Both the position numbers and the translations under genes were made by a program. Below are positions 10,319 through 54,216 of a stretch of DNA of 64,000 nt, piece by piece (the stretch's first letter is position 1; each line of letters begins with the position of its first letter). The notes under the pieces were generated by a model. That model was not told where the DNA came from. It saw only the letters and a program-made list of their open reading frames with translations, and did not search any database. Source of the stretch: a virus (lineage: Duplodnaviria > Heunggongvirae > Uroviricota > Caudoviricetes); the IMG/VR virus record IMGVR_UViG_2565956624_000008; one strand, 5' to 3'.

Positions 10319-10993
10319 TCACCATTCATAGGGTAAATTAAGCGCTTTTAAACCTTGCTGGAAAGTATTAAGAGAGCCGTTTTTTTGTTGTTCCATTTTT
10401 TCGCGTGCAGCTTTCTCATACTGCTCCATCCGTTGGTTATACTCTTGCAATTCCTCCGGGGAGAGGTTTCCCATTGGGGAGTTTGTACCCGGCCCCCTGG
10501 CCCGTTCTTCAAGCGTACCCTGAACGTTTTGATGGCGCATTCCCGGGGCGTTTCTGATTGAATCAATGCCATTTCTTCCAACGTCTTCTTTATTAACGGC
10601 ATTGCTCGCCACCAGTACGCCCCAGCTAGGGATAGCAAAATCAGGAGCGGTTTCGCATGCCTTTACCATATAATCGAAAGAGCTTCGATTGATCTCGTTT
10701 GCGTCGGGATTTAATAGGCGAGAATATTGATATTTAGCATTTTCGTTGGTTGCGACTTTATACAGTTCTTGCTGCACCATCGCTTCAGAAAGTTTAAGGC
10801 GTTTCATATCTGATAGTAACTTCTTGCGCATGGATTCGTCTTGACTGACAGCAAAACCGTAAACGTGCCCAAGGTATTTCGTATAATCGGTACAAATCTC
10901 CTTTACGCTTGATGCTGCATTAACAGTCCCAGCCATAAATAATAACGGTAGTAATAGTTTTCTCATTATAACCTCACCTGCCTTATAACTCAT
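10319..10993 (-). CDS. Periplasmic protein, candidate superinfection-exclusion (Sim-like); likely true start ~10966 (MRKLLL)
   Basis: Signal peptide MRKLLLPLLFMAGTVNA; size about 25 kDa; sits beside immI where P1 carries sim; C-terminal motif GMRHQNVQGTLEERARGPGT resembles a Sit segment. Confidence 0.45.
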   Translation of the reverse strand: MSYKAGEVIMRKLLLPLLFMAGTVNAASSVKEICTDYTKYLGHVYGFAVSQDESMRKKLLSDMKRLKLSEAMVQQELYKVATNENAKYQYSRLLNPDANEINRSSFDYMVKACETAPDFAIPSWGVLVASNAVNKEDVGRNGIDSIRNAPGMRHQNVQGTLEERARGPGTNSPMGNLSPEELQEYNQRMEQYEKAAREKMEQQKNGSLNTFQQGLKALNLPYEW

Positions 10994-11062
10994 TTAGGGT
11001 ACATATTTTCGCCTTTAAAAAAAAGAGGTTATTAGATCCAATTGTGTATTTATTAAGCATAT

Positions 11063-11079
11063 AATGCTCTAATAAATTT
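11063..11079 (+). promoter_or_regulatory. C1 operator-like site upstream of immI (Op51 position)
   Basis: AATGCTCTAATAAATTT, one mismatch to the P1 C1 operator consensus ATTGCTCTAATAAATTT. Confidence 0.6.
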
Positions 11080-11289
11080 GTATTTTTAAGTCGCGAATGC
11101 TATCTTTTCGCATCATGTTGACCTTTTAATCGTTCAGGCTTATAGTTCCGCCGTCGTAGCAAATTCTGCGACCGGGTTTAGCAGCCTGAATGATTGTGCG
11201 GACAGCCGCAGATATCCGATATTGCGGTATTTTTGTGTCCGTAAAACCGCGTTACGCCCAAATTATGGTGGGGCGTGATGGGGAGGCTT

Positions 11290-11393
11290 CGGCCTGCTGG
11301 TTTCACAATCGCCAGTCTGCTAACCCCGTCACGTCCTGCCACCTGTTTAGCAGCGGGTAGCAGGTTGTTAAACCTGATTGTGAGGCCGTAACT
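11290..11393 (+). ncRNA. c4: Expected location of the c4 antisense repressor RNA
   Basis: Placed only by synteny (directly upstream of icd-ant, downstream of Op51); no structure verified. Confidence 0.25.
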
Positions 11394-11615
11394 ATGGTTA
11401 ATGCCAATCCTTGCGCACGCCAAGAATTCATCTGGCGTTTCTATTCCTGTAAAAAACACCACTATCACTTCGTTATCGCAGCAACTGAAGACGAAGCACG
11501 CTCTCAATTGCCTGATGGCCCCTGCATTTTTACTGCCCGTTTTTCAACTAACTCGCGCAATTCACTTAGTTACTGGAACCTCCCCTTCTCTGCCGACGTT
11601 CAGGGGGTTTTATGA
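11394..11615 (+). CDS. icd: Icd-like small protein overlapping the ant start
   Basis: 73-aa ORF whose stop overlaps the ant start codon, matching the P1 icd-ant arrangement. Confidence 0.55.
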   Translation: MVNANPCARQEFIWRFYSCKKHHYHFVIAATEDEARSQLPDGPCIFTARFSTNSRNSLSYWNLPFSADVQGVL

Positions 11616-12649
11616 AAAAACCTCTCGTCACCCGTAATGACATAGCCGAAGCGATCGCCCTGCATACTGCCTGTATGCCGACACGGGAGATCCCCGGCGC
11701 AATTGCCAACTATTTCATGATAACCAGACGTTTTTATACCCGAACAGATAAGGCTGTGATCAACAGGCTACTGATAGCCGAGATCAGGGATTATTTGATT
11801 GAACAAGGACGTCTACGTTACGCAACAGTGGCAGCAGAAATGAGAAAGGAGGCACATATAATGACCGGTAATAATTTGAATGTTGAAAAACCAGCACCTG
11901 TTACGTCAGCTACGCCAGCACCAGCCGTGAATATTATCCCCAACACCGGAGACACAATCGACAGCCTGACACTGTTAAAGATGGTCAATGAAGCGCGTAA
12001 GTTATGTGGGGAACCAGAGGTTCGGAACAACAAATTCATCGAAAAAATACTCGATGAGCTTGATGGTGAGCACTACACAAAAAGTGTAGTGGAAAAAATG
12101 AACAAAACATCAATGCTTGTCATAACCATGACTTTCAAACAAGCCCTGCGAGTCGCCGCGCGCGAGTCAAAAGCGGTCCGCCGTTCGCTGATCGACAAAC
12201 TGGAAGAATTACAGCAGGCAAACTCCCCTACCCCATCGATCCCCCAGACATTACCAGAAGCCCTACGCCTGGCTGCCGAGTTAGCAGAACAGAAAATGCA
12301 GTTGGAACAACAGCTGGTGGCCGCAGCCCCTAAAGTCGATTTTGCCGACCGGGTATCAGTGGCCAATGGAATCCTGATCGGGAACTTTGCAAAGGTCGTT
12401 GGACTTAAGCAAAACGCTCTTTTCTCATGGTTGCGCCAGAATGGCATTCTCATGGCTTTTGGAGCGCGCAAAAACGTACCGCGCCAACAGTACATCAACG
12501 CCGGGTATTTCACTGTGAAAGAAGTGGTGCTGGATGATGAAAATGGCTACCAGATACGGCTGACGCCCCAATTAACGGGTAAAGGCCAGCAGTGGTTAAC
12601 TCGCAAGCTACTTGATGCTGGTTTGTTAAAACCAGTAGCAATAGGTTAA
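11612..12649 (+). CDS. ant1: Antirepressor Ant (KilA-C / AntA-type C-terminal domain)
   Basis: 345 aa; C-terminal half is paralogous to the C-terminal half of the downstream KilA ORF (LPEALRLAA.LAEQK...GKGQQWL). Confidence 0.65.
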   Translation: MKKPLVTRNDIAEAIALHTACMPTREIPGAIANYFMITRRFYTRTDKAVINRLLIAEIRDYLIEQGRLRYATVAAEMRKEAHIMTGNNLNVEKPAPVTSATPAPAVNIIPNTGDTIDSLTLLKMVNEARKLCGEPEVRNNKFIEKILDELDGEHYTKSVVEKMNKTSMLVITMTFKQALRVAARESKAVRRSLIDKLEELQQANSPTPSIPQTLPEALRLAAELAEQKMQLEQQLVAAAPKVDFADRVSVANGILIGNFAKVVGLKQNALFSWLRQNGILMAFGARKNVPRQQYINAGYFTVKEVVLDDENGYQIRLTPQLTGKGQQWLTRKLLDAGLLKPVAIG

Positions 12650-12727
12650 CAAAAGAAAAAAACCTGCCAGCAAACTGGCAGGTTTCTGAGCAGATCGACC
12701 AACCCGATCTGGATCGAGTTAGAAAAA

Positions 12728-12744
12728 TTTGCTCTAATAAATTT
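12728..12744 (+). promoter_or_regulatory. C1 operator-like site upstream of kilA-repL (Op53 position)
   Basis: TTTGCTCTAATAAATTT, one mismatch to the operator consensus. Confidence 0.6.
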
Positions 12745-12813
12745 CGTTTTCTAAGTGCAAAGAATCACCATTTCGAGCTGGTGATTGAAGGTTGATGCAA
12801 ATTTGGAGAAAAA

Positions 12814-13614
12814 ATGCAACAAACATTCAATGCGGATATGAATATATCAAACCTTCATCAAAATGTCGATCCTTCAACCACTCTGCCTGTTATTTGTGGT
12901 GTTGAAATTACGACCGACCGAGCTGGCCGTTACAACCTTAATGCTCTACACAGAGCGAGCGGACTCGGTGCCCATAAAGCGCCAGCTCAATGGCTAAGAA
13001 CGCTGTCAGCTAAACAGCTCATCGAAGAGCTTGAAAAAGAAACTATGCAGAATTGCATAGTTTCGTTCGAAGGCCGTGGCGGCGGCACTTTTGCCCATGA
13101 ATTGCTCGCAGTGGAGTACGCAGGCTGGATTTCTCCCGCGTTTCGGCTGAAGGTAAACCAGACATTTATCGACTATCGAGCCGGAAGATTACAACCTGCT
13201 ATTCCGAAGAGCCTCCCAGAAGCTCTCCGTTTGGCTGCTGACCTGGCAGAGCAAAAGCAACGGCTGGAGCAAAAAATGCTGATGGATGCACCTAAAGTCG
13301 AATTCGCCGAACGCGTTGCTACCGCCAGCGGGGTTCTAATCGGCAACTATGCCAAAGTGCTCGGCCTGGGCCAAAACTATCTCTTCACCTGGTTGCGTGA
13401 TAACGGAATTCTGATCGCAACCGGTGAACGCAGGAACGTCCCCAAACAAGAATACATATCCCGTGGGTATTTCACCCTTAAAGAAACCGTGATCGATACA
13501 AGCAATGGAAGCAGGATTTCTTTCACGACTCGTATAACCGGCAAAGGTCAGCAGTGGCTGATGAAGCGATTGCTTGATGCTGGTGTGCTGGTACCTGTCG
13601 CGGCAACGCGCTAA
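12814..13614 (+). CDS. kilA: KilA (KilA-N plus antirepressor-type C-terminal domain)
   Basis: 266 aa; shares the C-terminal domain with Ant; precedes repL as in P1. Confidence 0.65.
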   Translation: MQQTFNADMNISNLHQNVDPSTTLPVICGVEITTDRAGRYNLNALHRASGLGAHKAPAQWLRTLSAKQLIEELEKETMQNCIVSFEGRGGGTFAHELLAVEYAGWISPAFRLKVNQTFIDYRAGRLQPAIPKSLPEALRLAADLAEQKQRLEQKMLMDAPKVEFAERVATASGVLIGNYAKVLGLGQNYLFTWLRDNGILIATGERRNVPKQEYISRGYFTLKETVIDTSNGSRISFTTRITGKGQQWLMKRLLDAGVLVPVAATR

Positions 13615-13643
13615 CAGACGTAGTAAGAACCACCAGCATTGTA

Positions 13644-14489
13644 ATGCTGGCTAAAGTCACTTTCCTGAGCTGTATAACGATGAGCGATTTTACTTTTTCT
13701 GGCTATGAATTGGCCTGCTTTGTAACACACTCCGGTCTATCCCGTAGCGCCGGGCATATCCTGTCGCAATGTGCAAATCTCGCGGCAACAACCAGTGAAT
13801 ACTTCATTCACAAGCCTCACCGCCTGATCGCGGCAGAAACTGGTTATAGCCAATCAACCGTCGTTCGTGCATTCCGTGAAGCTGTAAACAAAGGAATTCT
13901 GTCTGTAGAGATTGTTATCGGCGATCACCGTGAACGTCGCGCTAACCTGTACCGGTTTACACCATCCTTTTTGGCCTTCGCACAACAAGCCAAAAATGCG
14001 CTGATTGAAAGCAAATTAAAGATCTCTTCAGCGGCAACCAAGGTTAAAGCTGTTCTCGCTAAGACATTGGCTTTATTTAATTTTTTATCCACACCCCCAT
14101 GTCAAAATGATACCCCCTCCCCCTGTCAGGATGACGTGGCAATAAAGAATAAGAAGTCACAAGTTAAAAAAACAAAAAGATCAGTTTCCGGCGGTGCCGG
14201 AACGACCAGACTCAAAAAATTGACTTCATGGATCGCTGAGGCAAAAGCAAAGGCTGACAATCTGCGGTTATCCAAAAAACGCGCTCAAAAACATGAGTTC
14301 AAGCAGAAAGTAGAGGCGGCAGCGCGGAAATATGCTTACCTGAAGAACAAGCGTTCTCCTGATATTGGCGGGGTATCAAACTTCGATAATCTGCCGCATT
14401 GCATGACGGTAAACGAAGCTCTTAATGCGGTTTTAGCCAAAAATAAAGATAACGAACAATGGGGTATACCGGCAGGATTCAGAGGGTGA
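13644..14489 (+). CDS. repL: RepL lytic replication initiator
   Basis: 281-aa ORF directly after kilA under the same operator; basic C-terminal region; synteny with the P1 lytic replicon. Confidence 0.6.
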   Translation: MLAKVTFLSCITMSDFTFSGYELACFVTHSGLSRSAGHILSQCANLAATTSEYFIHKPHRLIAAETGYSQSTVVRAFREAVNKGILSVEIVIGDHRERRANLYRFTPSFLAFAQQAKNALIESKLKISSAATKVKAVLAKTLALFNFLSTPPCQNDTPSPCQDDVAIKNKKSQVKKTKRSVSGGAGTTRLKKLTSWIAEAKAKADNLRLSKKRAQKHEFKQKVEAAARKYAYLKNKRSPDIGGVSNFDNLPHCMTVNEALNAVLAKNKDNEQWGIPAGFRG

Positions 14490-14785
14490 TAGATTGCTCT
14501 AATCTGGAGTCACCTGGCGTTTTCAGTTTGAGGTCGGAGATGCAATCTGATTTTTTACAGTTAGCAATCGCTTTTGCAGGATATGTTTGTATTGGCTTCT
14601 GTGTATACATGATCAGCCGAAAAATGCTTGTCGATATCGACCGCAAAGAACAAGCAGAGAAGATCTTAGTATGGATTTTCTTTGGCGCGGTCTGGCCATT
14701 AGGGATCATGTTTGCTGCAACATTTCTTCTGATGTGGATATTCACCCTTCCAGGTGATTTCTATAGAAAAAAAGCCAGACATTGA
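14459..14785 (+). CDS. Small membrane protein (probable true start ~14540)
   Basis: Two hydrophobic segments (LAIAFAGYVCIGFCVYMI; ILVWIFFGAVWPLGIMFAATFLLMWIF). Confidence 0.3.
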   Translation: MGYTGRIQRVIDCSNLESPGVFSLRSEMQSDFLQLAIAFAGYVCIGFCVYMISRKMLVDIDRKEQAEKILVWIFFGAVWPLGIMFAATFLLMWIFTLPGDFYRKKARH

Positions 14786-14908
14786 TACAATCGTTGCGGG
14801 TGCTTGAGGCTATCTGCTTCAGGCATTACCCGAAAAGCAGATAGAAGAAAGCCCCAGATAACATTACGCGTCCTGCAAGACGCTTAACATTAATCTGAGG
14901 CCATATCT

Positions 14909-15115
14909 ATGCTTAGCATACGTAGATTAGCCTCTTACCGACCAAAAGGTCAAGGAGAAGCAGGCTATGAAGCAGCAAAAGGCGATGTTAATCGCCCTGA
15001 TCGTCATCTGTTTAACCGTCATAGTGACGGCACTGGTAACGAGGAAAGACCTCTGCGAGGTACGAATCCGAACCAGCCAGACGGAGGTCACTGTCTTCAC
15101 AGCCTACGAATCTGA
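14909..15115 (+). CDS. mok: Mok-like overlapping reading frame of the hok locus
   Basis: 68-aa ORF that overlaps hok in a different frame and ends inside it, the classic mok/hok arrangement. Confidence 0.45.
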   Translation: MLSIRRLASYRPKGQGEAGYEAAKGDVNRPDRHLFNRHSDGTGNEERPLRGTNPNQPDGGHCLHSLRI

Positions 15116-15122
15116 AAGGTAA
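14967..15122 (+). CDS. hok: Hok/Gef-family type I toxin
   Basis: 51-aa product MKQQKAMLIALIVICLTVIVTALVTRKDLCEVRIRTSQTEVTVFTAYESER: N-terminal TM helix plus the conserved Hok C-terminal pattern; below the ORF-track size cut-off. Confidence 0.8.
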   Translation: MKQQKAMLIALIVICLTVIVTALVTRKDLCEVRIRTSQTEVTVFTAYESER

Positions 15123-15195
15123 GAGACCTGGCGGGGAGAGATCTCCGCCACTCTTCGTGTGTCAGGTATCCTCAATGCACCCTTTCCTCTCCAAA

Positions 15196-15222
15196 TAAAA
15201 AAGCTCCCGAAGGAGCTTTAAA
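15196..15222. terminator. Intrinsic terminator between hok and the convergent late operon
   Basis: AGCTCC-CGAA-GGAGCT hairpin flanked by an A-run and a T-rich tract. Confidence 0.55.
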
Positions 15223-15238
15223 ATACAAGGGATTACTA

Positions 15239-15748
15239 TTAATCCCACTCAATCCAGTTGTAGACGATACGAAGTGACGGGCGCACAGCGGCAGTCACAT
15301 CTTCGGTACTAAAGTCGATTGCATCACTGTAGATTTTGCAGTCCAACATTTCAATTGTTGTAGCAGCTTTTGTCACAGCGTTAACCCCGGAAGATTTGGA
15401 TTCAGGGGTAGCAGCCATCGTGATATCAACATAGTCCTTCGCCGCAATGCGATCCTTGATGAACTGAAGAATATCGCCTTCGATAGTCTCCACGCACTGG
15501 ACCTGGATTTCCCCAGAGTTTCGAATTGGTCCGTGCTGGTTGAACTTCACACCATTCGGACCATAGTCCTCCACATCCTCGCGGGTCATTTCAGGAATTT
15601 GCGACGTGCGAACCAGTACGCTGATATCTTCATGGCCTGCAAAAGTGAGCTGGAATTCAGAAGATACCAGTCGTTCGCCTTTGGCCGCGTTGGCAGTATA
15701 GCGGCCCTTAATAAATTTACGGTTTCCCTTAGTGTTATTGTGCCCCAT
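15239..15748 (-). CDS. Putative tail tube-type structural protein
   Basis: 169-aa ORF at the distal end of the sheath-containing late operon; size and position only. Confidence 0.3.
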   Translation of the reverse strand: MGHNNTKGNRKFIKGRYTANAAKGERLVSSEFQLTFAGHEDISVLVRTSQIPEMTREDVEDYGPNGVKFNQHGPIRNSGEIQVQCVETIEGDILQFIKDRIAAKDYVDITMAATPESKSSGVNAVTKAATTIEMLDCKIYSDAIDFSTEDVTAAVRPSLRIVYNWIEWD

Positions 15749-15759
15749 ATAAAATCCTT

Positions 15760-16341
15760 TTACTGGAACGCCCGAACAATATCGGAGCTGTTATATATCG
15801 AAGAACCGGTCAACTGGAGGTTGACGGTGTTTTTCAGGAAATGCCCATTGCTGTCCCTGGGCGCATCGAGATCGAAACTTATGTCCTGGATAGCGACATC
15901 AATGATGTTGATCCGGCGACCAATGTTTAGCGTCACACGCTCCGGGATTCGACCACCAATACTGGCATCTTTAAGTTCCGGGCTAATCATCGCTGACAAT
16001 GCGGCGATAGCGCCTGAAACCTCCATGAATGGGTCAAACAAAGCGATGAAAGTTACTGGCAGCGTGAAAGTCGGCGGTGTTCCCCCCTCCCAAACCATTA
16101 AGCTGTTCCAACGGGCCACCGACGTTGTTTCAGTACCAACCTGCGCAAAACCACTGAAAGCACCAGCAACAGACCCCATGGACATACCGGTAAACGGCGC
16201 TTCCCAATTCTGGGCCATGTTCATTGCCGCCCCCTGGCTGATATATCCGGTAACCTGGTACTGAGAGTTCGTTAAAGTAACTTTCAGAAATGGTGATACA
16301 CCGTCAGCCTGGCTGTAAACCCCATAAGGTATAGGTGCCAT
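15760..16341 (-). CDS. Hypothetical late structural protein
   Basis: 193-aa ORF in the late operon. Confidence 0.3.
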   Translation of the reverse strand: MAPIPYGVYSQADGVSPFLKVTLTNSQYQVTGYISQGAAMNMAQNWEAPFTGMSMGSVAGAFSGFAQVGTETTSVARWNSLMVWEGGTPPTFTLPVTFIALFDPFMEVSGAIAALSAMISPELKDASIGGRIPERVTLNIGRRINIIDVAIQDISFDLDAPRDSNGHFLKNTVNLQLTGSSIYNSSDIVRAFQ

Positions 16342-16376
16342 TCAAGTTAAAGGCCGGAGTTCTCCGGCCTCCTCCT

Positions 16377-17189
16377 TTAGCCAAGGCGCTTACGGCGCAG
16401 TTTCATTGACTTTTTGCGGGCCAGTTTTGCCGCGCCGGTCTGGGCTTTACGACGTGCTTTTTTCAGCGCCGATTTTTGAGCCGCAGTCAGACGTTTTTTA
16501 CGCAGGCGTTTACGGATGAGTTTGATCTCACCGTTACGAACAACCTTCTTAAATGCTTCAGTCAGCATTTCATCAGAAGTGCCAGCAACAACAAACGCCG
16601 CTTCCAGTTCGTCACGGTCGTCGCTATCTAAACCAGCGATAGAGGCACCAACATCAGCAGCTGCGTCGTCGTCTTCATCGTCAGCCAGTGCTTCGATCAG
16701 GTCATCATCTACACCGCATGCTGCGAGGAAGTCAGCAACATTTGCCCATGCTTCGTTATAGGCATCGTCCTGTTCTTCTGTAACTTCGGAGTCGTCGTCG
16801 TCAGAGATACCAGCGATAGCCTGAACGAAACCATCAAGGGAGTCGAAAGTCAGATCACCGCTATCGGCCCAGGCGAAAACGGCATCGGCCGCATTACTCA
16901 ACGCATTCTGCATAGCACTTCGATTTGCAGCTTCCAGAATCATCTGGTGCGCCTGTTCGACGGTCCATTCTTTACCGTCTTTCCCTTCCAGGATTTGCTC
17001 AGGAGCCGGGTCAGATGGAACGTTATCGTTAGTCTGTGCCGCCGGTTCCGGATTATTAATAACCGGATCTGTTGGCGGTTCGGCGCTTGCTCGGGCAGAC
17101 TCCATCAGCTGCACAGGATCAGAGTTCAAAGCGAAACGAGACAGTCCATTCCCCAAAAATGCCCCGGATTGAAAAAAGTTTTTGCTCAT
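16377..17189 (-). CDS. Acidic protein with highly basic C-terminal tail
   Basis: Asp/Glu-rich centre; C-terminus KRLRKKRLTAAQKSALKKARRK...RRKRLG suggests nucleic-acid or scaffold interaction. Confidence 0.3.
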   Translation of the reverse strand: MSKNFFQSGAFLGNGLSRFALNSDPVQLMESARASAEPPTDPVINNPEPAAQTNDNVPSDPAPEQILEGKDGKEWTVEQAHQMILEAANRSAMQNALSNAADAVFAWADSGDLTFDSLDGFVQAIAGISDDDDSEVTEEQDDAYNEAWANVADFLAACGVDDDLIEALADDEDDDAAADVGASIAGLDSDDRDELEAAFVVAGTSDEMLTEAFKKVVRNGEIKLIRKRLRKKRLTAAQKSALKKARRKAQTGAAKLARKKSMKLRRKRLG

Positions 17190-46343: not shown

Positions 46344-46850
46344 TTGAGTATTTTCAATAAACACGCACACCAGGAACGTCCGTACATCGTCATAGTAGAT
46401 ATTGATGGGACGATATCAGAGGCAACGGAAGACAGGCTGCATTTACTTCCACCACCTGGCAAAGGTGCATTAACAGAGCACTGGAACGAGTTTAACCTTG
46501 CCTGTGACACTGATGCTCCCATCACTCCAGTTATTGATATGGTGCGCCAGTTGTCCGGCATTTACACCCTCTGGTTTGTAACCGGGCGCTGTGAGATAGC
46601 CAGGGATAAAACACGAGCCTGGTTGCGTAAGCACGTAACAAATGGGGCGGAGCCTTTGCTATCTATGCGTCCTGCCACCGATGACAGAAATGACGGTCCA
46701 GCAAAGATTGATCTCCTGAAGAAAATTGGTCTAAGTAAAATTGCGTTCGCGCTGGAAGATAAGATTGAAGTGGCGCGTGTTTTCAGGAGTCACGGCGTAC
46801 TTACGTTAATGGTCAGGGAGTATGAAAACGCGCTTCTCCATCAACAATAA
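46344..46850 (+). CDS. HAD-superfamily phosphatase (P1 pap position)
   Basis: N-terminal VIVDIDGTI (DxDGT) motif. Confidence 0.5.
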   Translation: MSIFNKHAHQERPYIVIVDIDGTISEATEDRLHLLPPPGKGALTEHWNEFNLACDTDAPITPVIDMVRQLSGIYTLWFVTGRCEIARDKTRAWLRKHVTNGAEPLLSMRPATDDRNDGPAKIDLLKKIGLSKIAFALEDKIEVARVFRSHGVLTLMVREYENALLHQQ

Positions 46851-46866
46851 TTGCTCTAATAAATCT
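46850..46866 (+). promoter_or_regulatory. C1 operator-like site overlapping the preceding stop codon
   Basis: ATTGCTCTAATAAATCT. Confidence 0.6.
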
Positions 46867-47044
46867 TGATTTTTAAAACAGAGAAAGTGAAAATAAAAAC
46901 ATGCCGTAAGGCGCGGCATGTATCCAATCAATCACAGGAGCTGAAAATATGAACACGGCATTCAAAATCATTATGGCCGCGATCTATTTCTGGCTGTTCT
47001 CTATCACTTTTGGCGGCATCGTCGCGCATGGGTAAGGGGGATGC

Positions 47045-47773
47045 ATGAAAGGCGAAGTGAAAGAGCGCGGCATGATTTTCAACGATGAGATGGTCCGAGC
47101 CATCCTCGAAGGAAGGAAAACGCAGACGCGGCGGATAATGAAAAATCAGCCTGCGGAAGTTGGTCCAGAAGCACCAGTGATGGTTAGGGAAATTGGTGCA
47201 GGTTTTCAGTGGTACGGGGCTGATGGTGTAAGCAGTGTTTTCAATTGCCCCTTTGGTATCGTCGGCGATCGAATTTGGGTTCGTGAAACATGGGCGATAT
47301 TAGGCAATGAGGATGGTTGCAGTGTGGACTGGAACGACAACCTTTGTCGTGGCGATGAGAAGAACGCAGCAAGGATTTATCGGGCCAGTTGCGAGCAAAA
47401 ACCTGGTGATTACGGCTTATGGTCGATACCCGATGATGCCGACTGGAAACCTCACACTGTGAATGAAAAGTTTGATGGTGGGTGGCGTCCATCAATTCAC
47501 ATGCCGCGATGGGCATCACGCATTCTGTTGGAAATTACCAACGTGCGCGTTGAACGGTTGAACGATATCAGCGAATGCGATGCAAGGGCTGAGGGCGTTC
47601 CGCCTGCTGGAAGTTTGCTTCCTGATCACCCGGGAACATTCCTTACTCCCAAGGGGGATTTCGCAATGGCCAAGGTTGCGTTCCAGCGCCTGTGGGAATC
47701 CATCTATGGTGAAGAAAGCTGGAACGCTAATCCCTGGGTGTGGGTAATCGAGTTTAAGCGCATTCAGGAATAA
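47045..47773 (+). CDS. ASCH-like domain protein (tentative)
   Basis: N-terminal FNDEMVRAILEGRKTQTRR resembles the ASCH GxKxxExR-type motif. Confidence 0.3.
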   Translation: MKGEVKERGMIFNDEMVRAILEGRKTQTRRIMKNQPAEVGPEAPVMVREIGAGFQWYGADGVSSVFNCPFGIVGDRIWVRETWAILGNEDGCSVDWNDNLCRGDEKNAARIYRASCEQKPGDYGLWSIPDDADWKPHTVNEKFDGGWRPSIHMPRWASRILLEITNVRVERLNDISECDARAEGVPPAGSLLPDHPGTFLTPKGDFAMAKVAFQRLWESIYGEESWNANPWVWVIEFKRIQE

Positions 47774-47856
47774 ACCGTGAGTATGCATCAAATCGTCAGT
47801 TTTTCAGGTGGACGAGCATCAGCCTGTCTCGTTCATCTGTTCGAATAGGTAGTGGC

Positions 47857-48060
47857 ATGACAATCGTAAAAACCCATACCGGCACCGTGATCACCAAAGA
47901 CGGTCCGCAGGTAAAAAAACTGCACCAAACAGAGCGGATGTGGGTCGTCGGCAAAAATGAGTTTTACCACAAAGATACCGGACGCCGCCACTTTGCAGAA
48001 AATACGCGCCGTCGACTGCTGTTAGACACCATCAAGCCTATCGAGGTGAAGCATGTTTAA
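47857..48060 (+). CDS. Small hypothetical protein
   Basis: 67-aa ORF. Confidence 0.25.
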   Translation: MTIVKTHTGTVITKDGPQVKKLHQTERMWVVGKNEFYHKDTGRRHFAENTRRRLLLDTIKPIEVKHV

Positions 48061-48292
48061 ACAGAACGAAAAAGCTATCGCTCAAATTGCTGATTATATC
48101 CCGCGTGCGTGCCGGGGTATGCAGTTGCAGGAAGCCAAAGCGCGCCTGGAGAAAAAAATTGCGCTCTATATTGATGACGGCTGTGATGCTGCCGTTCTTA
48201 ACGCGGCGTTCGCACCAGCTCTTAACAGTCATACTCGGGAGTCTTTTTTTTCGTGCATCGAAGCGCAACTCCGCAAAGGAGGCAGCCAGTGA
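48053..48292 (+). CDS. Small protein ending in the Ea22-like C-terminal motif QLRKGGSQ
   Basis: Shares the C-terminal motif with downstream paralogues; stop overlaps the next start (GTGA). Confidence 0.35.
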   Translation: MFKQNEKAIAQIADYIPRACRGMQLQEAKARLEKKIALYIDDGCDAAVLNAAFAPALNSHTRESFFSCIEAQLRKGGSQ

Positions 48293-48990
48293 GCAAAATT
48301 AATTACCGGGCACTGCGTGAGATAGCAAAACAGGCAACACAGGGCGAATGGGTCGCATTTATTTCGCCGGGTACTGGTACGTATGCGGTGCATACGCCCG
48401 GTGATAAACGATGTGAAGATGTTATCAAATGGACCGGCTTTGATGGGCTGAAAAACGCAGAGAACAACGCTCGTTATGTTGCCGCATTCAACCCAAAGGT
48501 TGCACTGGCGCTACTTGGTGAAATTAAGCGCCTGGAGGACACAAATATTGATGCTATGTGCCGAATAGCACCGCTTGAGACTAAGCTCGCGGCGCTGGTG
48601 GCAGAGAACGCCGGGCTGAAACACGCAATGGCCGTAACTCTTGAGCATGTGTCGGTCACGGATGCAGGGCAGGCTGGTGTTGCTGCAATGATTATCAACG
48701 ATGCCCTACACCACAGCGAAACTCCAGCTACCGATGCTTTTCTGGCTGAAATTCGTGCGGAAGCACGCAACGAGGGGATTAACTATACCGCCAGCCGTCT
48801 TGCTGCTGCGTTCAATCACGGATTTATCAATAAGTCTTTGCGTGAAGTTTTCGACGTTACACGCATGATTTTGTCAGCGAAAGAAGAGTTGGCTAATGAA
48901 GCGCATCCGATTGATGGCCTGTCTGGTGAATATGCGGAGAAATCCCTTGAAGAATGGGCGGAACAGATTCGCAAAGGAAGCAGCCAGTGA
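48289..48990 (+). CDS. Ea22-like family protein, paralogue 1
   Basis: GTG start after AAAGGAGG; N-terminus SKINYRALREIAKQATQGEWVA; C-terminus QIRKGSSQ. Confidence 0.45.
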   Translation: MSKINYRALREIAKQATQGEWVAFISPGTGTYAVHTPGDKRCEDVIKWTGFDGLKNAENNARYVAAFNPKVALALLGEIKRLEDTNIDAMCRIAPLETKLAALVAENAGLKHAMAVTLEHVSVTDAGQAGVAAMIINDALHHSETPATDAFLAEIRAEARNEGINYTASRLAAAFNHGFINKSLREVFDVTRMILSAKEELANEAHPIDGLSGEYAEKSLEEWAEQIRKGSSQ

Positions 48991-49277
48991 ATATCGACAC
49001 GACAATAACGATCGATACGCTCCTAAATACCGGTCTGGCACTTCTCGGTTGGCTTTACATCATGTCCCGCACATGGCGATGGCTGGGTTCCATTTTCCTA
49101 AAACAGTGGAAAAAACGGCGCAAACAGGAACTACGCCAGAAGGCATTAGAAGCGTTCTATGACGCATTTGAGCTTAGCCGCATTGAACCAGGTACAACAG
49201 CCAGGATAGCGACAAAAGGCGACCTGATGATAGTGATGTTCCGACAGGAGAGAGCAGAGAAAGGGGAATCAGCATGA
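48987..49277 (+). CDS. Small membrane protein
   Basis: GTG start overlapping the upstream stop; TM helix LLNTGLALLGWLYIM followed by a basic stretch. Confidence 0.35.
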   Translation: MNIDTTITIDTLLNTGLALLGWLYIMSRTWRWLGSIFLKQWKKRRKQELRQKALEAFYDAFELSRIEPGTTARIATKGDLMIVMFRQERAEKGESA

Positions 49278-49921
49278 AATTTTCCAAATTTTCTGAGTTG
49301 GTGAATCGTATTTTGTCCAACAACCACAGCCATCGTCGCGATATGGATGTAACAATCGTTGTTCATTCGCCTGGCAGCATTGGTTCAACACCTTCAGTTG
49401 AGGTTCAGTCAATTCACGCTGGTTTTGATTGGGATTCCGGGAAAGTGCTTATTTTCCCATCACAGCCACTGACCACGCTAACACCAGAACAGATTACTGA
49501 TATCACTGATAGTGTGCGCAAAGGTCAGTCTTGGCACGCATATCAGGAATACAAGAAGCATCAAGAGCAGTTGGAAAAATTGTCGATTGAACTGGATGCC
49601 GCAAAACAGCGCATTGCAGAGCTGGAGGGTAATCGCACGGCGCTGGCAGTGGAGAATGAGCTGGCTCGTAAGGCAGTTCAGGCATTCTGCGATGTTGTTG
49701 GCGACAACACCGAGGTTATCGCTGAGGTGGTTGGGCGAGATGGCGTTCTGGTTATTTTGGAGGCCATGAAGGCAACAGGAAATATGCCAGCCACCGATGC
49801 TTTCCTGGCTGAAGTACGGGCGCAGGGCGTGGAGATGTTTGCGGAGTGTGCATACACGCTTGAACATCATGATCACGCAGTAGCCTTCGCCGCTGAGCTT
49901 CGCAAAGGAGGCAACCAGTGA
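49274..49921 (+). CDS. Ea22-like family protein, paralogue 2 (different N-terminus)
   Basis: C-terminal third shared with paralogues (ALAVENELARKAV ... PATDAFLAEVRAQGVEM ... ELRKGGNQ). Confidence 0.4.
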   Translation: MKFSKFSELVNRILSNNHSHRRDMDVTIVVHSPGSIGSTPSVEVQSIHAGFDWDSGKVLIFPSQPLTTLTPEQITDITDSVRKGQSWHAYQEYKKHQEQLEKLSIELDAAKQRIAELEGNRTALAVENELARKAVQAFCDVVGDNTEVIAEVVGRDGVLVILEAMKATGNMPATDAFLAEVRAQGVEMFAECAYTLEHHDHAVAFAAELRKGGNQ

Positions 49922-50505
49922 GCAAGATTGACTATCAAGAACTGCGCGAGGCGGCGGAACAGGCAACGCAAGATGAATGGGTAGCATATATTTTGCCGGG
50001 TCATAACGGCATTTATCCTGCGCGCACGTCTGAGGGTAGGCATTGCGGATACTTTATTGACTGGCCTGGCGTCTGTCAGGGGCGGGAGAGCATCAGCATC
50101 AGAACCTACGCAGTGAATTGCAATGACGCATGGCTAAACACCGAAGGTGATGACATCTCCGGCTCATACGTTAAGTACAAAGACCATCAGGAAGTGGTTG
50201 CCGCTCTTGAGGCCAAGTGCGCGGCGCTGGCAGTGGAGAATGCGGCGCTTAAACAGTCGGAGAAGGAATTTAATAACTTCTGTCGTCAGGAGTACTACGG
50301 TTGGGAGGACAACTTCACGGAAACCCCAGCTACCGACGCTCTCCTGGCTGAAGTACGTGCGCAGGGGGTGGATATGGCTCGTAACGCGATGATTGATTTT
50401 GTTGATGGTGAAGTTGGGCCAAACAAGAACGTTCCGGGGCTGATTAGAGGCGCAGAGATATGCGTAAGTATTGCTGAACAGCTTCGCAAAGGAGGCAACC
50501 AGTGA
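49918..50505 (+). CDS. Ea22-like family protein, paralogue 3
   Basis: N-terminus SKIDYQELREAAEQATQDEWVA; C-terminus QLRKGGNQ; GTGA overlap with neighbours. Confidence 0.45.
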   Translation: MSKIDYQELREAAEQATQDEWVAYILPGHNGIYPARTSEGRHCGYFIDWPGVCQGRESISIRTYAVNCNDAWLNTEGDDISGSYVKYKDHQEVVAALEAKCAALAVENAALKQSEKEFNNFCRQEYYGWEDNFTETPATDALLAEVRAQGVDMARNAMIDFVDGEVGPNKNVPGLIRGAEICVSIAEQLRKGGNQ

Positions 50506-50948
50506 GCAAGATTGATTATCAAAAGCTTCGTGAAATCGCTGAAAAAACAAAAATTGCTGGTGAAGCACCTGTAATGCCCTTCGATCAGCGAATTAATGCG
50601 CTTAACGATTTTATGAAGCACTTTTCGCCAGATATCGCGCTGGCACTGCTGGATGAACGGGAAAGAAACCAGCAATACATCAAATCCCGCGACCAGGAGA
50701 ACGAGGATATTGCGCTAACGGTAGGGAAGTTGCGCGTTGAGCTTGAGGCAGAAAAACAGCGGGCAAAGGATCTGTTTATGGAAAATGCTCGGCTTAAGTC
50801 AGGTATAGCCGGTCTGATACACCTCGGTATTCGATATGCAGATGTTGATGTCATGAAAATTGCTGGAGATGCCCAGCTTTCTACCCCATGCACTGACAGC
50901 ATCATAAACAGCATTGCAACAGGCATTCGCATCAACGGAGGTGAGTAG
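50502..50948 (+). CDS. Ea22-like N-terminal domain protein, paralogue 4
   Basis: N-terminus SKIDYQKLREIAEKTK; divergent coiled-coil C-terminus. Confidence 0.4.
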   Translation: MSKIDYQKLREIAEKTKIAGEAPVMPFDQRINALNDFMKHFSPDIALALLDERERNQQYIKSRDQENEDIALTVGKLRVELEAEKQRAKDLFMENARLKSGIAGLIHLGIRYADVDVMKIAGDAQLSTPCTDSIINSIATGIRINGGE

Positions 50949-51120
50949 TGCGTGTGGCATGTATTGGCTTGTTACCGTACCCGACTCGTTTTTGGGCTTC
51001 TGCGCTAATTGCAAAGCCACATGTCCTGATGGCTGACAACATCATCCCGGCACCAAAGCGCCGCCATACCGGTATTGCAGCGGCACGACGAGCAGCAAAG
51101 AGACGCAGGAGAGCAAAGCG

Positions 51121-51300
51121 ATGAAAAACCGTAAGGCAAAACGACTTTTTTTACAGCGACCTGTGCGTGTGGTGGAGCTGGTTATTAGCAACCATAAGAT
51201 AGCGGTAATCCATCCATTATTTGGTCAGGTGGCTTTTGCCGCAAAGCGTAAGCCTACTGCGTCACAGAACAGGCGGAAGAAAGGGTACGCAGTAAGATGA
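51121..51300 (+). CDS. Small basic protein (MKNRKAK family, copy 1)
   Basis: 59-aa ORF below the track cut-off; first 20 nt nearly identical to the next gene start; stop overlaps the next ATG. Confidence 0.25.
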   Translation: MKNRKAKRLFLQRPVRVVELVISNHKIAVIHPLFGQVAFAAKRKPTASQNRRKKGYAVR

Positions 51301-51485
51301 AAAACCGTAAAGCAAAGATTCTGTTAGTTCGTAGAAACGCTCCTGGCGTCTGGCAGTGGGTGAGACTCAGCAACCGACGGATGGGGTTGATGAAATATTA
51401 CGGGATGATGGATTGTGGTTTTTGCAAAAAGCCCAGCGCGGCGCAAAACCGCTGGAAAAACCACTTGCGTACTAAAGGAGAGTGA
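51297..51485 (+). CDS. Small basic protein (MKNRKAK family, copy 2)
   Basis: 62 aa, pI clearly basic, contains CGFC. Confidence 0.3.
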   Translation: MKNRKAKILLVRRNAPGVWQWVRLSNRRMGLMKYYGMMDCGFCKKPSAAQNRWKNHLRTKGE

Positions 51486-51486
51486 T

Positions 51487-51696
51487 ATGGCTATCGCTGC
51501 AAGTTACACCATGCATCTCTATTGTGACTGCCGTCAGTGCACGGAAGGTGTATATCCAGTGCCAGACTTCGGTGAGTATATAGGTACGTCATGGGCTGGC
51601 TGTGCAAAAGAGGCGCGCAAGGATGGCTGGCGAATAAGCAAAGACAAAACACGTACTTTTGCGCCCGGGCATAAAGTTTTGAGGATTAACACATGA
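51487..51696 (+). CDS. Small Cys-rich protein
   Basis: MAIAASYTMHLYCDCRQCTEG...; internal start of the track ORF 51415..51696. Confidence 0.3.
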   Translation: MAIAASYTMHLYCDCRQCTEGVYPVPDFGEYIGTSWAGCAKEARKDGWRISKDKTRTFAPGHKVLRINT

Positions 51697-52061
51697 CCAC
51701 TATTACCAAAGAACGTGCGGAGATTAAATCATTCATCACAGGCTTCCTGAGCGACCCGGCGCACGATAACCAATCTTCAGACAGCCTGCTTGCCAATGTG
51801 TTTCGTATCGCGCTGGCATCGCTGGAAGCAGAACCGGTGGCGTGGATGCGTGATGACGCAGATGGTCGTGAGTATAACGCTCGCAATGAATTTTCTGGTG
51901 GAGGGGGAGGAATTCCACTCTACGCCACCCCTCAGGTGCAGGTAGTGCCGGAAGAAATGTATTGGCAGGATGCGCCAGTTGAAGGCAGCAGCAAAGCGGC
52001 TGCATACGCTACAGGCTGGAATGCCTGCCGCGCCGCTATGCTTCATGGGAAAGGAGAGTGA
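51693..52061 (+). CDS. MTTITKER-family protein, short paralogue
   Basis: Shares MTTITKER, RIALASLEA and PxVxVVPEE segments with the 52337 ORF. Confidence 0.35.
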   Translation: MTTITKERAEIKSFITGFLSDPAHDNQSSDSLLANVFRIALASLEAEPVAWMRDDADGREYNARNEFSGGGGGIPLYATPQVQVVPEEMYWQDAPVEGSSKAAAYATGWNACRAAMLHGKGE

Positions 52062-52062
52062 T

Positions 52063-52326
52063 ATGGCAACTTTAACAAAAAAAGAACGGGCATGGTTGAA
52101 CGAATTACAGGACGTTCTTGATCGCTGCCCATCACCGAAAAAAATTGGTTTTTACACCATTGGCGATAAAAGCATTTACCTGTATGACCTGCGCCGCATG
52201 GATGAAATCATGGAGGCTCTTGATAATCGTTCGTCGATGGATTGGTGTGTTGCTGTTCATGATATGAATGCAGGGTTTGATGAAAAGATTTTGTTCCCCT
52301 CATCAGTTGAAAGCACAGCGGGTTAA
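52063..52326 (+). CDS. Small hypothetical protein
   Basis: MATLTKKERAWLNELQ...; internal start of the track ORF 51970..52326. Confidence 0.3.
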   Translation: MATLTKKERAWLNELQDVLDRCPSPKKIGFYTIGDKSIYLYDLRRMDEIMEALDNRSSMDWCVAVHDMNAGFDEKILFPSSVESTAG

Positions 52327-52336
52327 GGAGTAACAC

Positions 52337-53224
52337 ATGACCACTATTACCAAAGAGCGACTGCTGACAATCAAGCAGTGGCGCGAAACATACGGACCTG
52401 GTAGCAACGTTGTACTGCCAGCAGAAGAAGCGGAAGAACTGGCACGGATTGCACTGGCATCGTTGGAAGCAAAACCAATAGGTGCATTCCACATTGCAGA
52501 ACAGCAAGTTGACGGCACAAGTGACTACCTCAAGGATGGAGAATGGCCTATTGATAATGGAATTATTGAGGTCTACGCCGCTCCCCCCGTTCCAGTAGTA
52601 CCGGAAGAAAAACCAATGCCTAACGCTCTAAGCATGCTTGAAAGAGAGATCACACAACTGATTGGTGATGCGCAGGAAGCCACTGTTACTGGCTATGAGT
52701 TAATCGCTGAAGCTTGGCGTTTGATGGATGGACAAGACCCTAAAACCAGCGATTGGCATAGCAAGGCTTCGAAGTATTTAAATTCCAATATTGTAGAAAA
52801 AGTTGATGATGACCGTATTGAGGCTGTTAAGGCTGTTTTGCGTAGACTGGCTGGCAACTATCCGGATATTCCGGATAGTTCGGTGCCAGCGCCAGGAAAG
52901 GGCGTCACCGGTGAACGTATCCGCATTAAGCCGCATGTTTATCGCGAACTGGTTAACCGTCTCCACGATACAGCGATCAAGTGTGCTGGCACCCAGCAAT
53001 TACGAGAAAGAATTAGCCGTGTTTTGGGCGACGTTATTACACCAGATCATCATAAACAAGCCGAGAAAAGTGACCTGGAAAGGTGTCACCTTGAGGCGGC
53101 ATTAAACATTAAGCCGGGGCATACGCTTGGCATTATTGATGCACTATTGGTTCATAAGATGGCCAGGGCTTTATTGCCGCTGGTGGCTGAAAAGCATGAG
53201 GTGGACCATGCCAACGAAAGCTGA
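52337..53224 (+). CDS. MTTITKER-family protein, long paralogue
   Basis: 295 aa; N-terminal 90 aa paralogous to the 51693 ORF. Confidence 0.35.
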   Translation: MTTITKERLLTIKQWRETYGPGSNVVLPAEEAEELARIALASLEAKPIGAFHIAEQQVDGTSDYLKDGEWPIDNGIIEVYAAPPVPVVPEEKPMPNALSMLEREITQLIGDAQEATVTGYELIAEAWRLMDGQDPKTSDWHSKASKYLNSNIVEKVDDDRIEAVKAVLRRLAGNYPDIPDSSVPAPGKGVTGERIRIKPHVYRELVNRLHDTAIKCAGTQQLRERISRVLGDVITPDHHKQAEKSDLERCHLEAALNIKPGHTLGIIDALLVHKMARALLPLVAEKHEVDHANES

Positions 53225-53492
53225 ATTACAGGTGCGCGTAGATGAGCTTGAAAAAGAGAACGCGAGCCTCAAAAAAATGCTGTCGCGGGCGGAAAGGGAA
53301 TTATCAGGCAAATTATTGCCAGAAGAACTGCCACCAGCAGATATACCTGATCGAGTGTCCTGGTGGATGAAGTATTTCCGTGCACCGTGGGAGGCGTTTT
53401 GGTGCTACGACCATCGCAGATGGTGTGATGAACTTGATAGCAATTTTCCCTACTTTGCGGAAGGGAACACCTGCCCTCAATGCAGGGGATAG
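53208..53492 (+). CDS. Small protein with C-terminal Cys/His cluster
   Basis: Coiled-coil N-terminus; C-terminal CYDHRRWC...CPQC. Confidence 0.3.
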   Translation: MPTKAELQVRVDELEKENASLKKMLSRAERELSGKLLPEELPPADIPDRVSWWMKYFRAPWEAFWCYDHRRWCDELDSNFPYFAEGNTCPQCRG

Positions 53493-53859
53493 CATTTGAC
53501 GAAATCGATCACCCTATCCTGAACTTCAGAAAGAAGGTCTTTTTCACGCGCCAGGACGTCAGGATATTGACGTTCTGGCCTTACCAGATGCCGGAGCTTC
53601 CCATTAAGCAGAATGGCCTCAGAAAACACTTTTACGCTGTGCTTTATCCCCTCTGTTTCACTTTTCAGCGTCAAAATAAAGCGCAATTGCTTATTAGCCT
53701 GATTCGGATTCAATACACGAATTTGCAGTTCGTCTATGCTGTTCCGCAATGGGATTGATGCCACCACACTGGTGCAGTCTCTGATTGTCTGAATTGAACG
53801 GCTAACATTGAGAACGTTATTGTGCATGTGCCTGATCCACTAACTCCTGGAGGTTTCTT

Positions 53860-54111
53860 GTGTCAGATCGAAATATAGCAGCTAAAAGCCAGGAAGAGCG
53901 AGACAAGGTGAACGTAGACCTTGCCGCCAGCGGCGTTGCTTACAAAGAACGGCTGAATATACCTGTGATTGCAGAGCAGGTGGCCCGTGAGCAACCGGAA
54001 AACCTGCGCGCCTATTTCATGGAACGGCTACGGCACTACCGGCAGTTAAGCCTCCAGTTGCCAAAAGGGAGCGATCCGGTGTATCAGAACGAGGATGCAC
54101 CAAAAAAATAA
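53860..54111 (+). CDS. hot: Hot, homologue of the DNA polymerase III theta subunit
   Basis: 83-aa ORF with GGAGG RBS; HolE-like composition; upstream of humD as in P1. Confidence 0.55.
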
Positions 54112-54196
54112 CGGCAAGATGGGGGAGAAATGTGATTAGCCCCCAGCGTGGCGCGCCTACAAACCCCGCTTTCACAAACTATGCCTTTTCAATGTA

Positions 54197-54216
54197 TACT
54201 GTATGAATAAACAGTA
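54197..54216 (+). promoter_or_regulatory. LexA (SOS) box upstream of humD
   Basis: TACTGTATGAATAAACAGTA fits the CTGT-N8-ACAG consensus. Confidence 0.8.

Follow-up and report, generated by a model that had tools for sequence, protein, structure and literature searches.

Introduction

As reported, P1-like phage-plasmids differ in the gene content of an interval next to pap, which has been described as RD-5 (pap to lxr; Venturini et al. 2019, PMC6906374) and as "highly variable region 8" (pmgT to humD; PMC9603915); one of these papers already notes an Ea22-type gene cluster in the place of pmgT in phage JL22. The P1 genes pmgT, pmgU, pmgV, upfN, and upfO are non-essential according to CRISPR interference (CRISPRi) and deletion surveys. 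In this study, we analyzed the corresponding interval in a 64,000-nucleotide stretch of IMG/VR virus record IMGVR_UViG_2565956624_000008 (hereafter, the window). The window is a P1-like phage-plasmid in which an array of small genes is flanked by pap (46344-46850) and hot (53860-54111), with humD and then phd/doc downstream of hot.

Two protein families of lambdoid phages are closest to the array products. Ea22 of lambda and Stx phages is a tetrameric, prolysogenic coiled-coil protein with a mosaic, variable C-terminal domain that differs between Ea22 variants (PMC7093339, PMC10834534), and Dydecka et al. described an unexplained basic-Gly-Glu ("+GE") end motif across all Ea22 proteins. The EaE-family protein gp27 of phage HK446 (Oad2) binds and directly inhibits the P2 OLD tRNase, and members of its family are in some cases fused to EaD/Ea22 proteins (bioRxiv 10.64898/2026.07.10.737580). 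In the same work, an HK75 homologue with 54% identity was inactive against OLD, and phage-encoded Thr(UGU) tRNAs were found to counter OLD, with HK446 carrying both such a tRNA and Oad2.

A first-pass annotation made from the letters of the window had read positions 48053-53830 as an expanded accessory island of shuffled paralogues with possible anti-defence functions. Our comparisons indicate that slot and array are a known hypervariable accessory region of the P1 family rather than a new kind of island, and that reference P1 carries a deletion in it. Probably, the slot holds a C1-controlled operon drawn from a lambdoid-type gene pool and reshuffled at short conserved junctions.

Reference P1 as a deleted form of the slot

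Eighty P1-like loci were gathered via Pap; both pap and hot are present in 29 loci, counting the window, P1, and pEC00592_4. The pap-hot interval of reference P1, at 2.29 kb, is the shortest of the 29; the others span 5.3-9.5 kb, and the 7.0 kb of the window is typical. Gene content of the slot is patchy between loci. The first gene, pmgT, occurs at 97-100% identity in many P1-like loci and as a second allele (approximately 46-50% identity) in others. Moreover, in 20 of 69 informative loci the slot is filled, on the minus strand, by a type IC hsdRSM restriction-modification (R-M) system (hsdR-hsdS-hsdM with a variable HsdS; for example, 10774-16806 of locus L026). In the type IC loci that reach hot (L010, L026, and L028), the whole pmgT array is replaced, and in the other type IC loci the genes of the window are absent from the available sequence, up to 10 kb. 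The nearest record to the window is E. coli plasmid pEC00592_4 (NZ_OP378608.1), which is 100% identical across 86% of positions 47000-54200.

Based on the alignment with reference P1, P1 84294-85182 corresponds to window 46851-47739 and P1 85188-85528 to window 52849-53189. Relative to the window, P1 has a deletion of ~5.1 kb that fuses pmgT to the interior of a 295-aa gene (47739/52849), and the fusion site lies at 7173-7203 of L002 (NC_005856), corresponding to P1 85172-85202. Residues 233-309 of P1 "PmgT" are an out-of-frame reading of the 295-aa gene, while P1 "PmgU" equals residues 183-283 of the 295-aa protein at 96% identity. Among 403 matching plasmid records, only 5 have the fusion junction as one unbroken stretch, as do the three P1 entries. 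Because there is no real homology at the junction, the deletion in P1 was illegitimate. Judged from these alignments, the 3' tail of P1 pmgT and the whole of pmgU are deletion remnants.

The interval is variable, as had been proposed: the content of reference P1 is not identical, the common part being only pmgT and a piece of the 295-aa gene. The accompanying idea of an expansion over a P1 backbone does not stand, since the P1 interval is the shortest of the 29; because reference P1 carries the deletion, the supposed expansion is the normal state. In other words, the yardstick for P1-like plasmids itself bears a deletion at this point, from which part of its pmgT and pmgU annotation arises as an artefact, and scoring "missing P1 genes" therefore misreads the slot.

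These observations also bear on the virion morphogenetic roles that the names pmgT, pmgU, and pmgV imply and that the historical P1 annotation ("putative morphogenetic function") records. We consider such roles for the array highly improbable. The P1 slot genes are non-essential, an R-M system replaces the slot in the 20 loci above, pmgU is a deletion remnant, and control would lie with a C1 operator rather than a late promoter.

Genes of the array

From pap to hot, the array comprises three Ead_Ea22 genes, a fourth gene with their C-terminal half, a DUF4752 gene, an MKNRKAK pair, an MTTITKER pair, and Cys-rich proteins. The features are as follows:

46850-46866, plus strand: C1 repressor operator OpmgT (formerly Op88), ATTGCTCTAATAAATCT, with the P1 PpmgT promoter region directly 3'
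47045-47773, plus strand: pmgT, full length (242 aa), first gene of the predicted operon; phrog_874 (7e-95), 99% identical to residues 1-232 of P1 PmgT
47857-48060, plus strand: 67-aa gene, phrog_1226, overlapping the next gene by 8 nt; omitted from the first-pass span
48053-48292, plus strand: 79-aa gene, phrog_1344, ending in the junction tail LRKGGSQ and stop
48289-48990, plus strand: ea22A, 233 aa, Ead/Ea22 N-terminal domain with an EaE/Oad2-family body; PF13935 (2.7e-26, 93.3 bits)
48987-49277, plus strand: DUF4752 small membrane protein with its GTG start within the junction repeat; PF15944 (2.4e-42)
49274-49921, plus strand: 215-aa mosaic gene with an unrelated N-terminal domain (phrog_6026), an EaE-type coiled coil, PATDAFLAEVRAQGV, and an LRKGGNQ tail
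49918-50505, plus strand: ea22B, 195 aa, Ead_Ea22 (Pfam 1.2e-17, 65.2 bits)
50502-50948, plus strand: ea22C, 148 aa, Ead_Ea22 (Pfam 1.3e-22, 81.3 bits), with a distinct C-terminus closing in GGE and stop
50948-51485, plus strand: three small basic peptides (58, 59, and 62 aa), the latter two MKNRKAK paralogues of phrog_1380
51487-51696, plus strand: 69-aa Cys-rich protein, phrog_926
51693-52326, plus strand: 122-aa MTTITKER gene and 87-aa gene (phrog_1714), a 644-bp unit between 37-nt repeats
52337-53224, plus strand: 295-aa MTTITKER gene; N-terminal module common to DUF551 proteins, C-terminal part equal to P1 "PmgU"
53208-53492, plus strand: 94-aa protein with a coiled coil and a Cys/His cluster, phrog_3797
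53477-53827, minus strand: 116-aa gene, phrog_2594, convergent with the array and divergent from hot

Because each array protein strongly matches a phage protein family (PHROG E-values of 1e-24 to 1e-95), the array genes are real genes. Every gene listed in the first-pass annotation was recovered at the same position, and its picture of a tight plus-strand array holds with two changes of extent. The proposed span of 48053-53830 does contain these genes, but the true start lies upstream, with the 67-aa gene and, at the head of the operon, pmgT; furthermore, the plus-strand arrangement runs to 53492, whereas the final 350 bp are a minus-strand gene.

The small transmembrane protein proved to be DUF4752, and the paralogy of the MKNRKAK peptides (pairwise blastp 7e-7) and of the MTTITKER pair (2e-8) was recovered, as were the Cys-rich peptide and the Cys/His-cluster protein. 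Of four proposed Ea22-like paralogues, three match Pfam Ead_Ea22 above the PF13935 gathering cut-off of 27 bits (ea22A, ea22B, and ea22C), whereas the 215-aa gene has no Pfam match and belongs with them by its C-terminal half only. The shared half comprises the coiled coil, PATDAFLAE, and LRKGGNQ (blastp 1e-10 to ea22B and 5e-5 to ea22A). The 79-aa protein has only its seven-residue LRKGGSQ tail in common with the Ea22-like genes.

A junction module at the gene boundaries

The stop-start overlaps described in the first-pass annotation are a general property of the array. Among the 14 junctions between 15 array genes (47857-53492), nine are ATGA or GTGA overlaps of 4 nt, and the remaining five range from -17 to +10 nt; at every junction, a Shine-Dalgarno (SD) sequence lies within the last codons of the upstream gene. 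Three kinds of conserved block underlie the direct repeats in the array: the junction module itself, a pair of blocks internal to genes, and the opening codons of the MKNRKAK and MTTITKER genes. In the junction module, CGCAAAGGAGGCArCCAGTGAGCAA, the codons for RKGG hold the GGAGG SD of the following gene, whose GTG start shares bases with the TGA stop and whose product begins with SKIDYQ. Its copies are located as follows:

48267-48337, plus strand: copy 1, RKGG tail with embedded SD, GTGA, and SKI(D/N)Y start (repeat families D1 and D4)
48958-48990, plus strand: copy 2, tail, SD, and GTGA only, followed by DUF4752 (repeat family D4)
49896-49966, plus strand: copy 3
50480-50550, plus strand: copy 4

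Ends in KGE, GGE, or RKGGNQ directly before the stop codon are found on unrelated proteins, and each coincides with the SD of an overlapping downstream gene. The termini shared by the paralogues would therefore largely be DNA-level junction or linker signals, set atop a genuine Ead/Ea22-EaE protein family. Because such ends always coincide with the SD of the downstream gene, the "+GE" end motif of Ea22 proteins is most simply read as a dual-coding footprint.

Origin of the genes and probable recombination at short blocks

Megablast of the interval returned patchy matches of 90-98% in hundreds of lambdoid, Stx, P22-like, and epsilon15-like phages, and no phage record covered 80% of it. Of 5426 complete E. 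coli genomes, 3553 contain pieces of the interval (6142 chromosomal places; mostly chromosomes), and none of the 5426 covers at least 80% of the interval or the whole arrangement. The same gene families lie within the early accessory regions of phiV10 and Lys8385Vzw; ea22C, for example, is 62% identical to an Ead-like protein of Lys8385Vzw.

The junction module is the site of a one-gene difference between two near-identical plasmids. The window and pEC00592_4 differ by a single 584-bp gene, the ea22B cassette (49918-50501), which is absent from pEC00592_4; the indel is bounded by the junction repeat, and the crossover falls within a 36-nt perfectly identical block of the module. Similarly, locus L004 lacks a 176-bp unit holding the 59-aa gene, flanked by 21-nt repeats, and the 644-bp unit of the 122- and 87-aa genes between 37-nt repeats. 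At least 120 IMG/VR viral contigs, mostly of lambdoid size, contain the exact 25-nt junction, and 97 full junction contexts join 45 upstream to 46 downstream sequence clusters in 81 combinations. Within genes, blocks reassort in the alignment of ea22A relatives, with 2 N-terminal alleles, at least 5 middle segments, and several tails. Moreover, the first ~180 residues of the 295-aa protein are found again, with 95-99% identity, in proteins whose C-termini are quite different (DUF551; some named sugar O-methyltransferases), which by sequence comparison shows block-swapping to extend beyond the Ea22 family. Breakpoint clusters fall in the intra-island repeat blocks in 27 of 42 cases (10.3 expected, nominal P about 6e-8), and in 26 of 55 cases they lie no more than 60 nt from a gene start (16.9 expected, nominal P = 0.008). 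Collectively, the cassette indels, block reassortment, and breakpoints at repeats bear out the earlier description of the paralogues as mosaic and shuffled.

Tandem duplication and divergence in place, with the termini kept by protein-level constraint only, would also account for several related genes that adjoin one another and have conserved ends. However, the paralogues are 25-38% identical to one another, and because they have closer relatives (90-100%) in other phages and plasmids than within the window, duplication in place is disfavored. The LRKGGNQ tail also closes unrelated proteins (that of the 79-aa gene and of many upstream genes elsewhere) and always coincides with the downstream SD. 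Collectively, these observations leave in-place duplication very improbable.

The precise gain and loss of gene-sized cassettes at a repeated sequence is also what dedicated site-specific cassette sites, such as integron attC, would give. However, the junction DNA folds no better than shuffled sequence (z from -0.19 to +0.94), and no recombinase or integrase gene was found in or beside the array (Pfam search of the array, pap, pmgT, hot, and humD; RefSeq annotation of the near-identical plasmid). Since the junctions are unstructured and there is no adjacent recombinase gene, homology-driven exchange fits better than a site-specific system; homology-driven exchange also predicts the crossovers seen at unrelated repeats (21-nt and 37-nt gene-start repeats, and intragenic blocks). 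We give dedicated sites hardly any credence.

Operator and predicted operon structure

The pap-pmgT spacer agrees with reference P1 at 209 of 211 positions, including the annotated OpmgT and the predicted pmgT promoters. Within the array, promoter-like sites are not in excess (5 versus 8.2 expected), and terminator-like hairpins are not above the expectation from shuffles (13 versus 8.6 ± 2.8); those on the plus strand are short-stemmed with weak T tails. Because the OpmgT spacer is conserved and internal signals are not in excess, we infer a single translationally coupled operon; the array is probably early and controlled by the C1 repressor.

Two further elements were observed in the spacer. 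A 28-aa hydrophobic open reading frame (ORF; MNTAFKIIMAAIYFWLFSITFGGIVAHG) with a good SD lies at 46949-47035 (plus strand) between the C1 operator and pmgT, and it is identical in reference P1, where it has no annotated coding sequence. A hairpin with an 8-bp stem lies at 46899-46921, directly 3' of the C1 operator; it would form a terminator (T-run) on the minus strand only and is kept in P1 with one loop substitution.

Relation to Oad2 and possible functions

The body of ea22A belongs to the EaE/Oad2 family. Both ea22A (1.1e-56 over residues 54-233) and Oad2 (8.3e-53) match phrog_614 as full-length members, while ea22B (1e-24) and the 215-aa gene (1.4e-16) match it in part. In direct comparison, blastp of HK446 gp27 yielded ea22B at 4e-11, ea22A at 5e-10, and the 215-aa gene at 7e-7, and hhalign of Oad2 against the ea22A-family profile gave a probability of 98.1%. 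HK446 gp27 also bears the motifs remarked on in the first-pass annotation. Furthermore, residues 88-233 of ea22A are 90% identical to an "Eae" protein of phage Lys8385Vzw. That protein has the EaE-type N-terminal segment (M..EM.GFL.GKC.PRDLKVNETNAEYL), which is present in no protein of the island; ea22A has an Ead N-terminus instead.

This homology offers one circumstantial support for the anti-defence idea. The Ea22/EaE-type genes (48289-48990, 49274-49921, 49918-50505, and perhaps 50502-50948) might form an early anti-defence panel that blocks OLD-family or other abortive-infection nucleases, with the variable segments setting the target and shuffling renewing the panel. In addition to the matches above, the direct inhibition of OLD by Oad2 and the EaD/Ea22 fusions noted by its authors point this way, as do an early, repressor-controlled expression that would suit anti-defence timing, the presence of a defence system (type IC R-M) in the slot elsewhere, and a family copy number that is the highest in the window among the 29 intervals. 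However, identity to Oad2 lies mostly in linker blocks, ea22A is without the EaE N-terminal segment, and no other array gene matches a known anti-defence or defence family. Because identity is 30-36% and a 54%-identical homologue is inactive, the OLD-inhibiting activity is not transferable to the array genes. We regard the panel as possible but doubtful, and much the same holds for the broader claim that at least one array gene may be an anti-defence inhibitor. In a bolder version, which would be less likely still, the tandem genes are a combinatorial library of Oad2-like inhibitors directed at abortive-infection nucleases, OLD-family ones among them, that E. coli and its resident prophages encode. 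The junction module, found across phage families, would then have two purposes: to keep newly joined genes translationally coupled and to act as the recombination linker through which inhibitor modules pass between lambdoid prophages and P1-like plasmids.

The window contains three tRNA genes: tRNA-Thr(UGU) at 31414-31489 (plus strand), tRNA-Asn(GUU), and one with a CAU anticodon. The occurrence of tRNA-Thr(UGU) alongside Oad2-family genes parallels HK446, a parallel that is circumstantial only.

The array genes might instead act as the exo-xis region of lambda and Stx phages does, that is, as early modulators of lysis-lysogeny and host physiology, with the Ea22-like proteins favoring establishment of the plasmid prophage. 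The Ead_Ea22 signature, the N-terminal domain followed by a coiled coil as in Stx-phage Ea22 variants, and the presence of the same families in the early-left accessory regions of lambdoid phages are consistent with this, and published ea22 deletions in lambda and Phi24B reduce host survival after infection. However, the C-terminal domains are unlike that of lambda Ea22 (phmmer of ea22A against all PDB chains returned no Ea22 chain at E ≤ 1), the immunity circuit of P1 is different (C1, Coi, and C4 RNA), and reference P1 lysogenises normally without any Ea22-like gene, its slot genes being non-essential. A role of this kind is a tentative proposition, and a bias of the array genes on the lysis-lysogeny decision is conceivable to a similar, limited degree. 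The anti-defence and lysis-lysogeny readings are compatible rather than exclusive, and both may hold.

Surroundings of the array

The GC content in 300-nt windows is 0.42-0.57 in the array (mostly 0.46-0.55) and 0.42-0.53 in the flanks; a compositional island was ruled out on this likeness. No RNA family was found in the array with Rfam at the gathering threshold. Elsewhere in the window, the sok antitoxin RNA (14798-14972) and the C4 antisense RNA of P1 immI with its a1/b1 targets (11140-11346) were observed, which is consistent with a P1-like backbone. The minus-strand phrog_2594 gene at the end of the array was detected by tblastn of the phage collection only in phage-plasmids, namely the P1-like RCS47 and D6 and, at 33-50% identity, SSU5-like ones. 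The sequence upstream of hot (53780-53860) is unrelated to the region of the P1 late promoter LPhot. Because of this difference, hot is probably regulated differently here than in P1.

Discussion

The explanation that we favor joins these results into one scheme. The slot between pap, with its C1 operator, and hot would hold a single translationally coupled operon of ~16 small genes. Starting at the C1-repressed pmgT promoter, it would stay off in the plasmid prophage and be expressed early once the phage infects or is induced. Its genes would be drawn from an accessory pool common to lambdoid, P22-like, and epsilon15-like enterobacterial prophages ("ea" or exo-xis type) and put together in varying combinations through homologous recombination at short conserved blocks. 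Foremost among these blocks would be the junction module, in which the end A-x-Q-L-R-K-G-G-N-Q with the next SD, the TGA/GTG overlap, and the start SKIDYQALRE are joined; two more would be intragenic, namely the coiled-coil LAALAVENAGLK block and the PATDAFLAEVRAQ block. The products may be modular, coiled-coil, oligomeric binders with swappable variable segments, made early and targeting host or resident-prophage proteins, and inhibition of defence nucleases (Oad2) and lysis-lysogeny bias (lambda Ea22) would be the precedented activities.

Several points weigh against this scheme or parts of it. The resemblance to Oad2 is low and concentrated in shared blocks, and loss of OLD inhibition already accompanies a much closer homologue. 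The AlphaFold2 models of ea22A (24 sequences) and of the 295-aa protein (28-sequence alignment) have predicted local distance difference test (pLDDT) scores of 47 and 41, respectively, and are unusable. Searches for a function yielded none: no array protein matched a family of known activity in Pfam, PADLOC, or PDB sequence searches, the last with the ea22A, 295-aa, and 215-aa proteins; NCBIfam returned no match at all for the 17 proteins compared; no PADLOC defence-system model matched the array significantly; and a literature search joining DUF4752, DUF551, and anti-defence found no paper. A marginal PADLOC PglZ match to 90 residues of the 295-aa protein (E = 0.001, 15.6 bits) was taken as chance. 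Furthermore, the end points of high-scoring segment pairs are non-independent and drawn to the edges of conserved blocks by construction, which overstates the significance of the breakpoints. C1 control and the operon structure are read from identity with P1 and from the absence of internal signals. Finally, the junction could owe its conservation mainly to translation and to the protein domain at the N-terminus, and recombination there would then be incidental.

Since the locus is a densely filled instance of a known hot spot, the value of the analysis is mainly corrective, in that the polarity relative to reference P1 is put right. In addition, the conserved ends of Ea22-type proteins receive a simple nucleotide-level account, as the ribosome-binding site of an overlapping gene and a recombination linker. 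If the homology to Oad2 reflects function, the slot is a place to seek inhibitors of abortive-infection nucleases in phage-plasmids that spread resistance, and the anti-OLD lead offers a testable outcome.

Compared with known systems, the locus is closest to RD-5/region 8, to which it belongs: the slot, the flanking genes, and the variable content between P1-like plasmids are the same. The RD-5 and region 8 papers, in the portions available, score gene presence against reference P1 and mention neither the junction module, the cassette indels, nor the P1 deletion remnants. The type IC R-M loci (EcoR124 and EcoDXXI type) use the same pap-hot slot, and the P1 annotation records flanks identical to the EcoDXXI and R124 hsd flanks; however, their cargo is a minus-strand defence system, whereas the window has a plus-strand early array.

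At the level of the genes, the array resembles the lambda/Stx exo-xis region and Ea22 in the Ead_Ea22 signature, the order of N-terminal domain, coiled coil, and variable C-terminal domain, the mosaic blocks, the early transcription predicted here, and the basic-Gly motif at the C-terminus. In contrast, lambda Ea22 is a single copy with a different C-terminal domain in the lambdoid pL operon (exo-xis), whereas three to four tandem copies lie here between pap and hot behind a C1 operator, and the equivalent of the "+GE" end coincides in the window with the SD of the overlapping downstream gene. The likeness to P22 EaE and HK446 Oad2 consists of phrog_614 membership and the blocks LAAENAG(L/M)K, ETPATDAFLAE(V/I)RA, and QLRKGGNQ (followed by the stop); the differences lie in the low identity of ea22A to Oad2, the replacement of the EaE N-terminus by an Ead one, and the variable segments. 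The attC-type structure and adjacent integrase of an integron-like cassette array are both absent.

In the modular or "linker" model, Susskind and Botstein reportedly proposed that lambdoid phages exchange modules the size of a gene, with homologous recombination acting on short conserved stretches where genes adjoin; our literature search on linker sequences at lambdoid gene boundaries returned nothing relevant. Compared with that model, the exact nucleotide sequence of the linker is known here; the linker also signals translational coupling, and two near-identical plasmids differ at it by the gain or loss of one gene. Collectively, the array is a new combination within an already known hot spot and protein family rather than a novel type of system.

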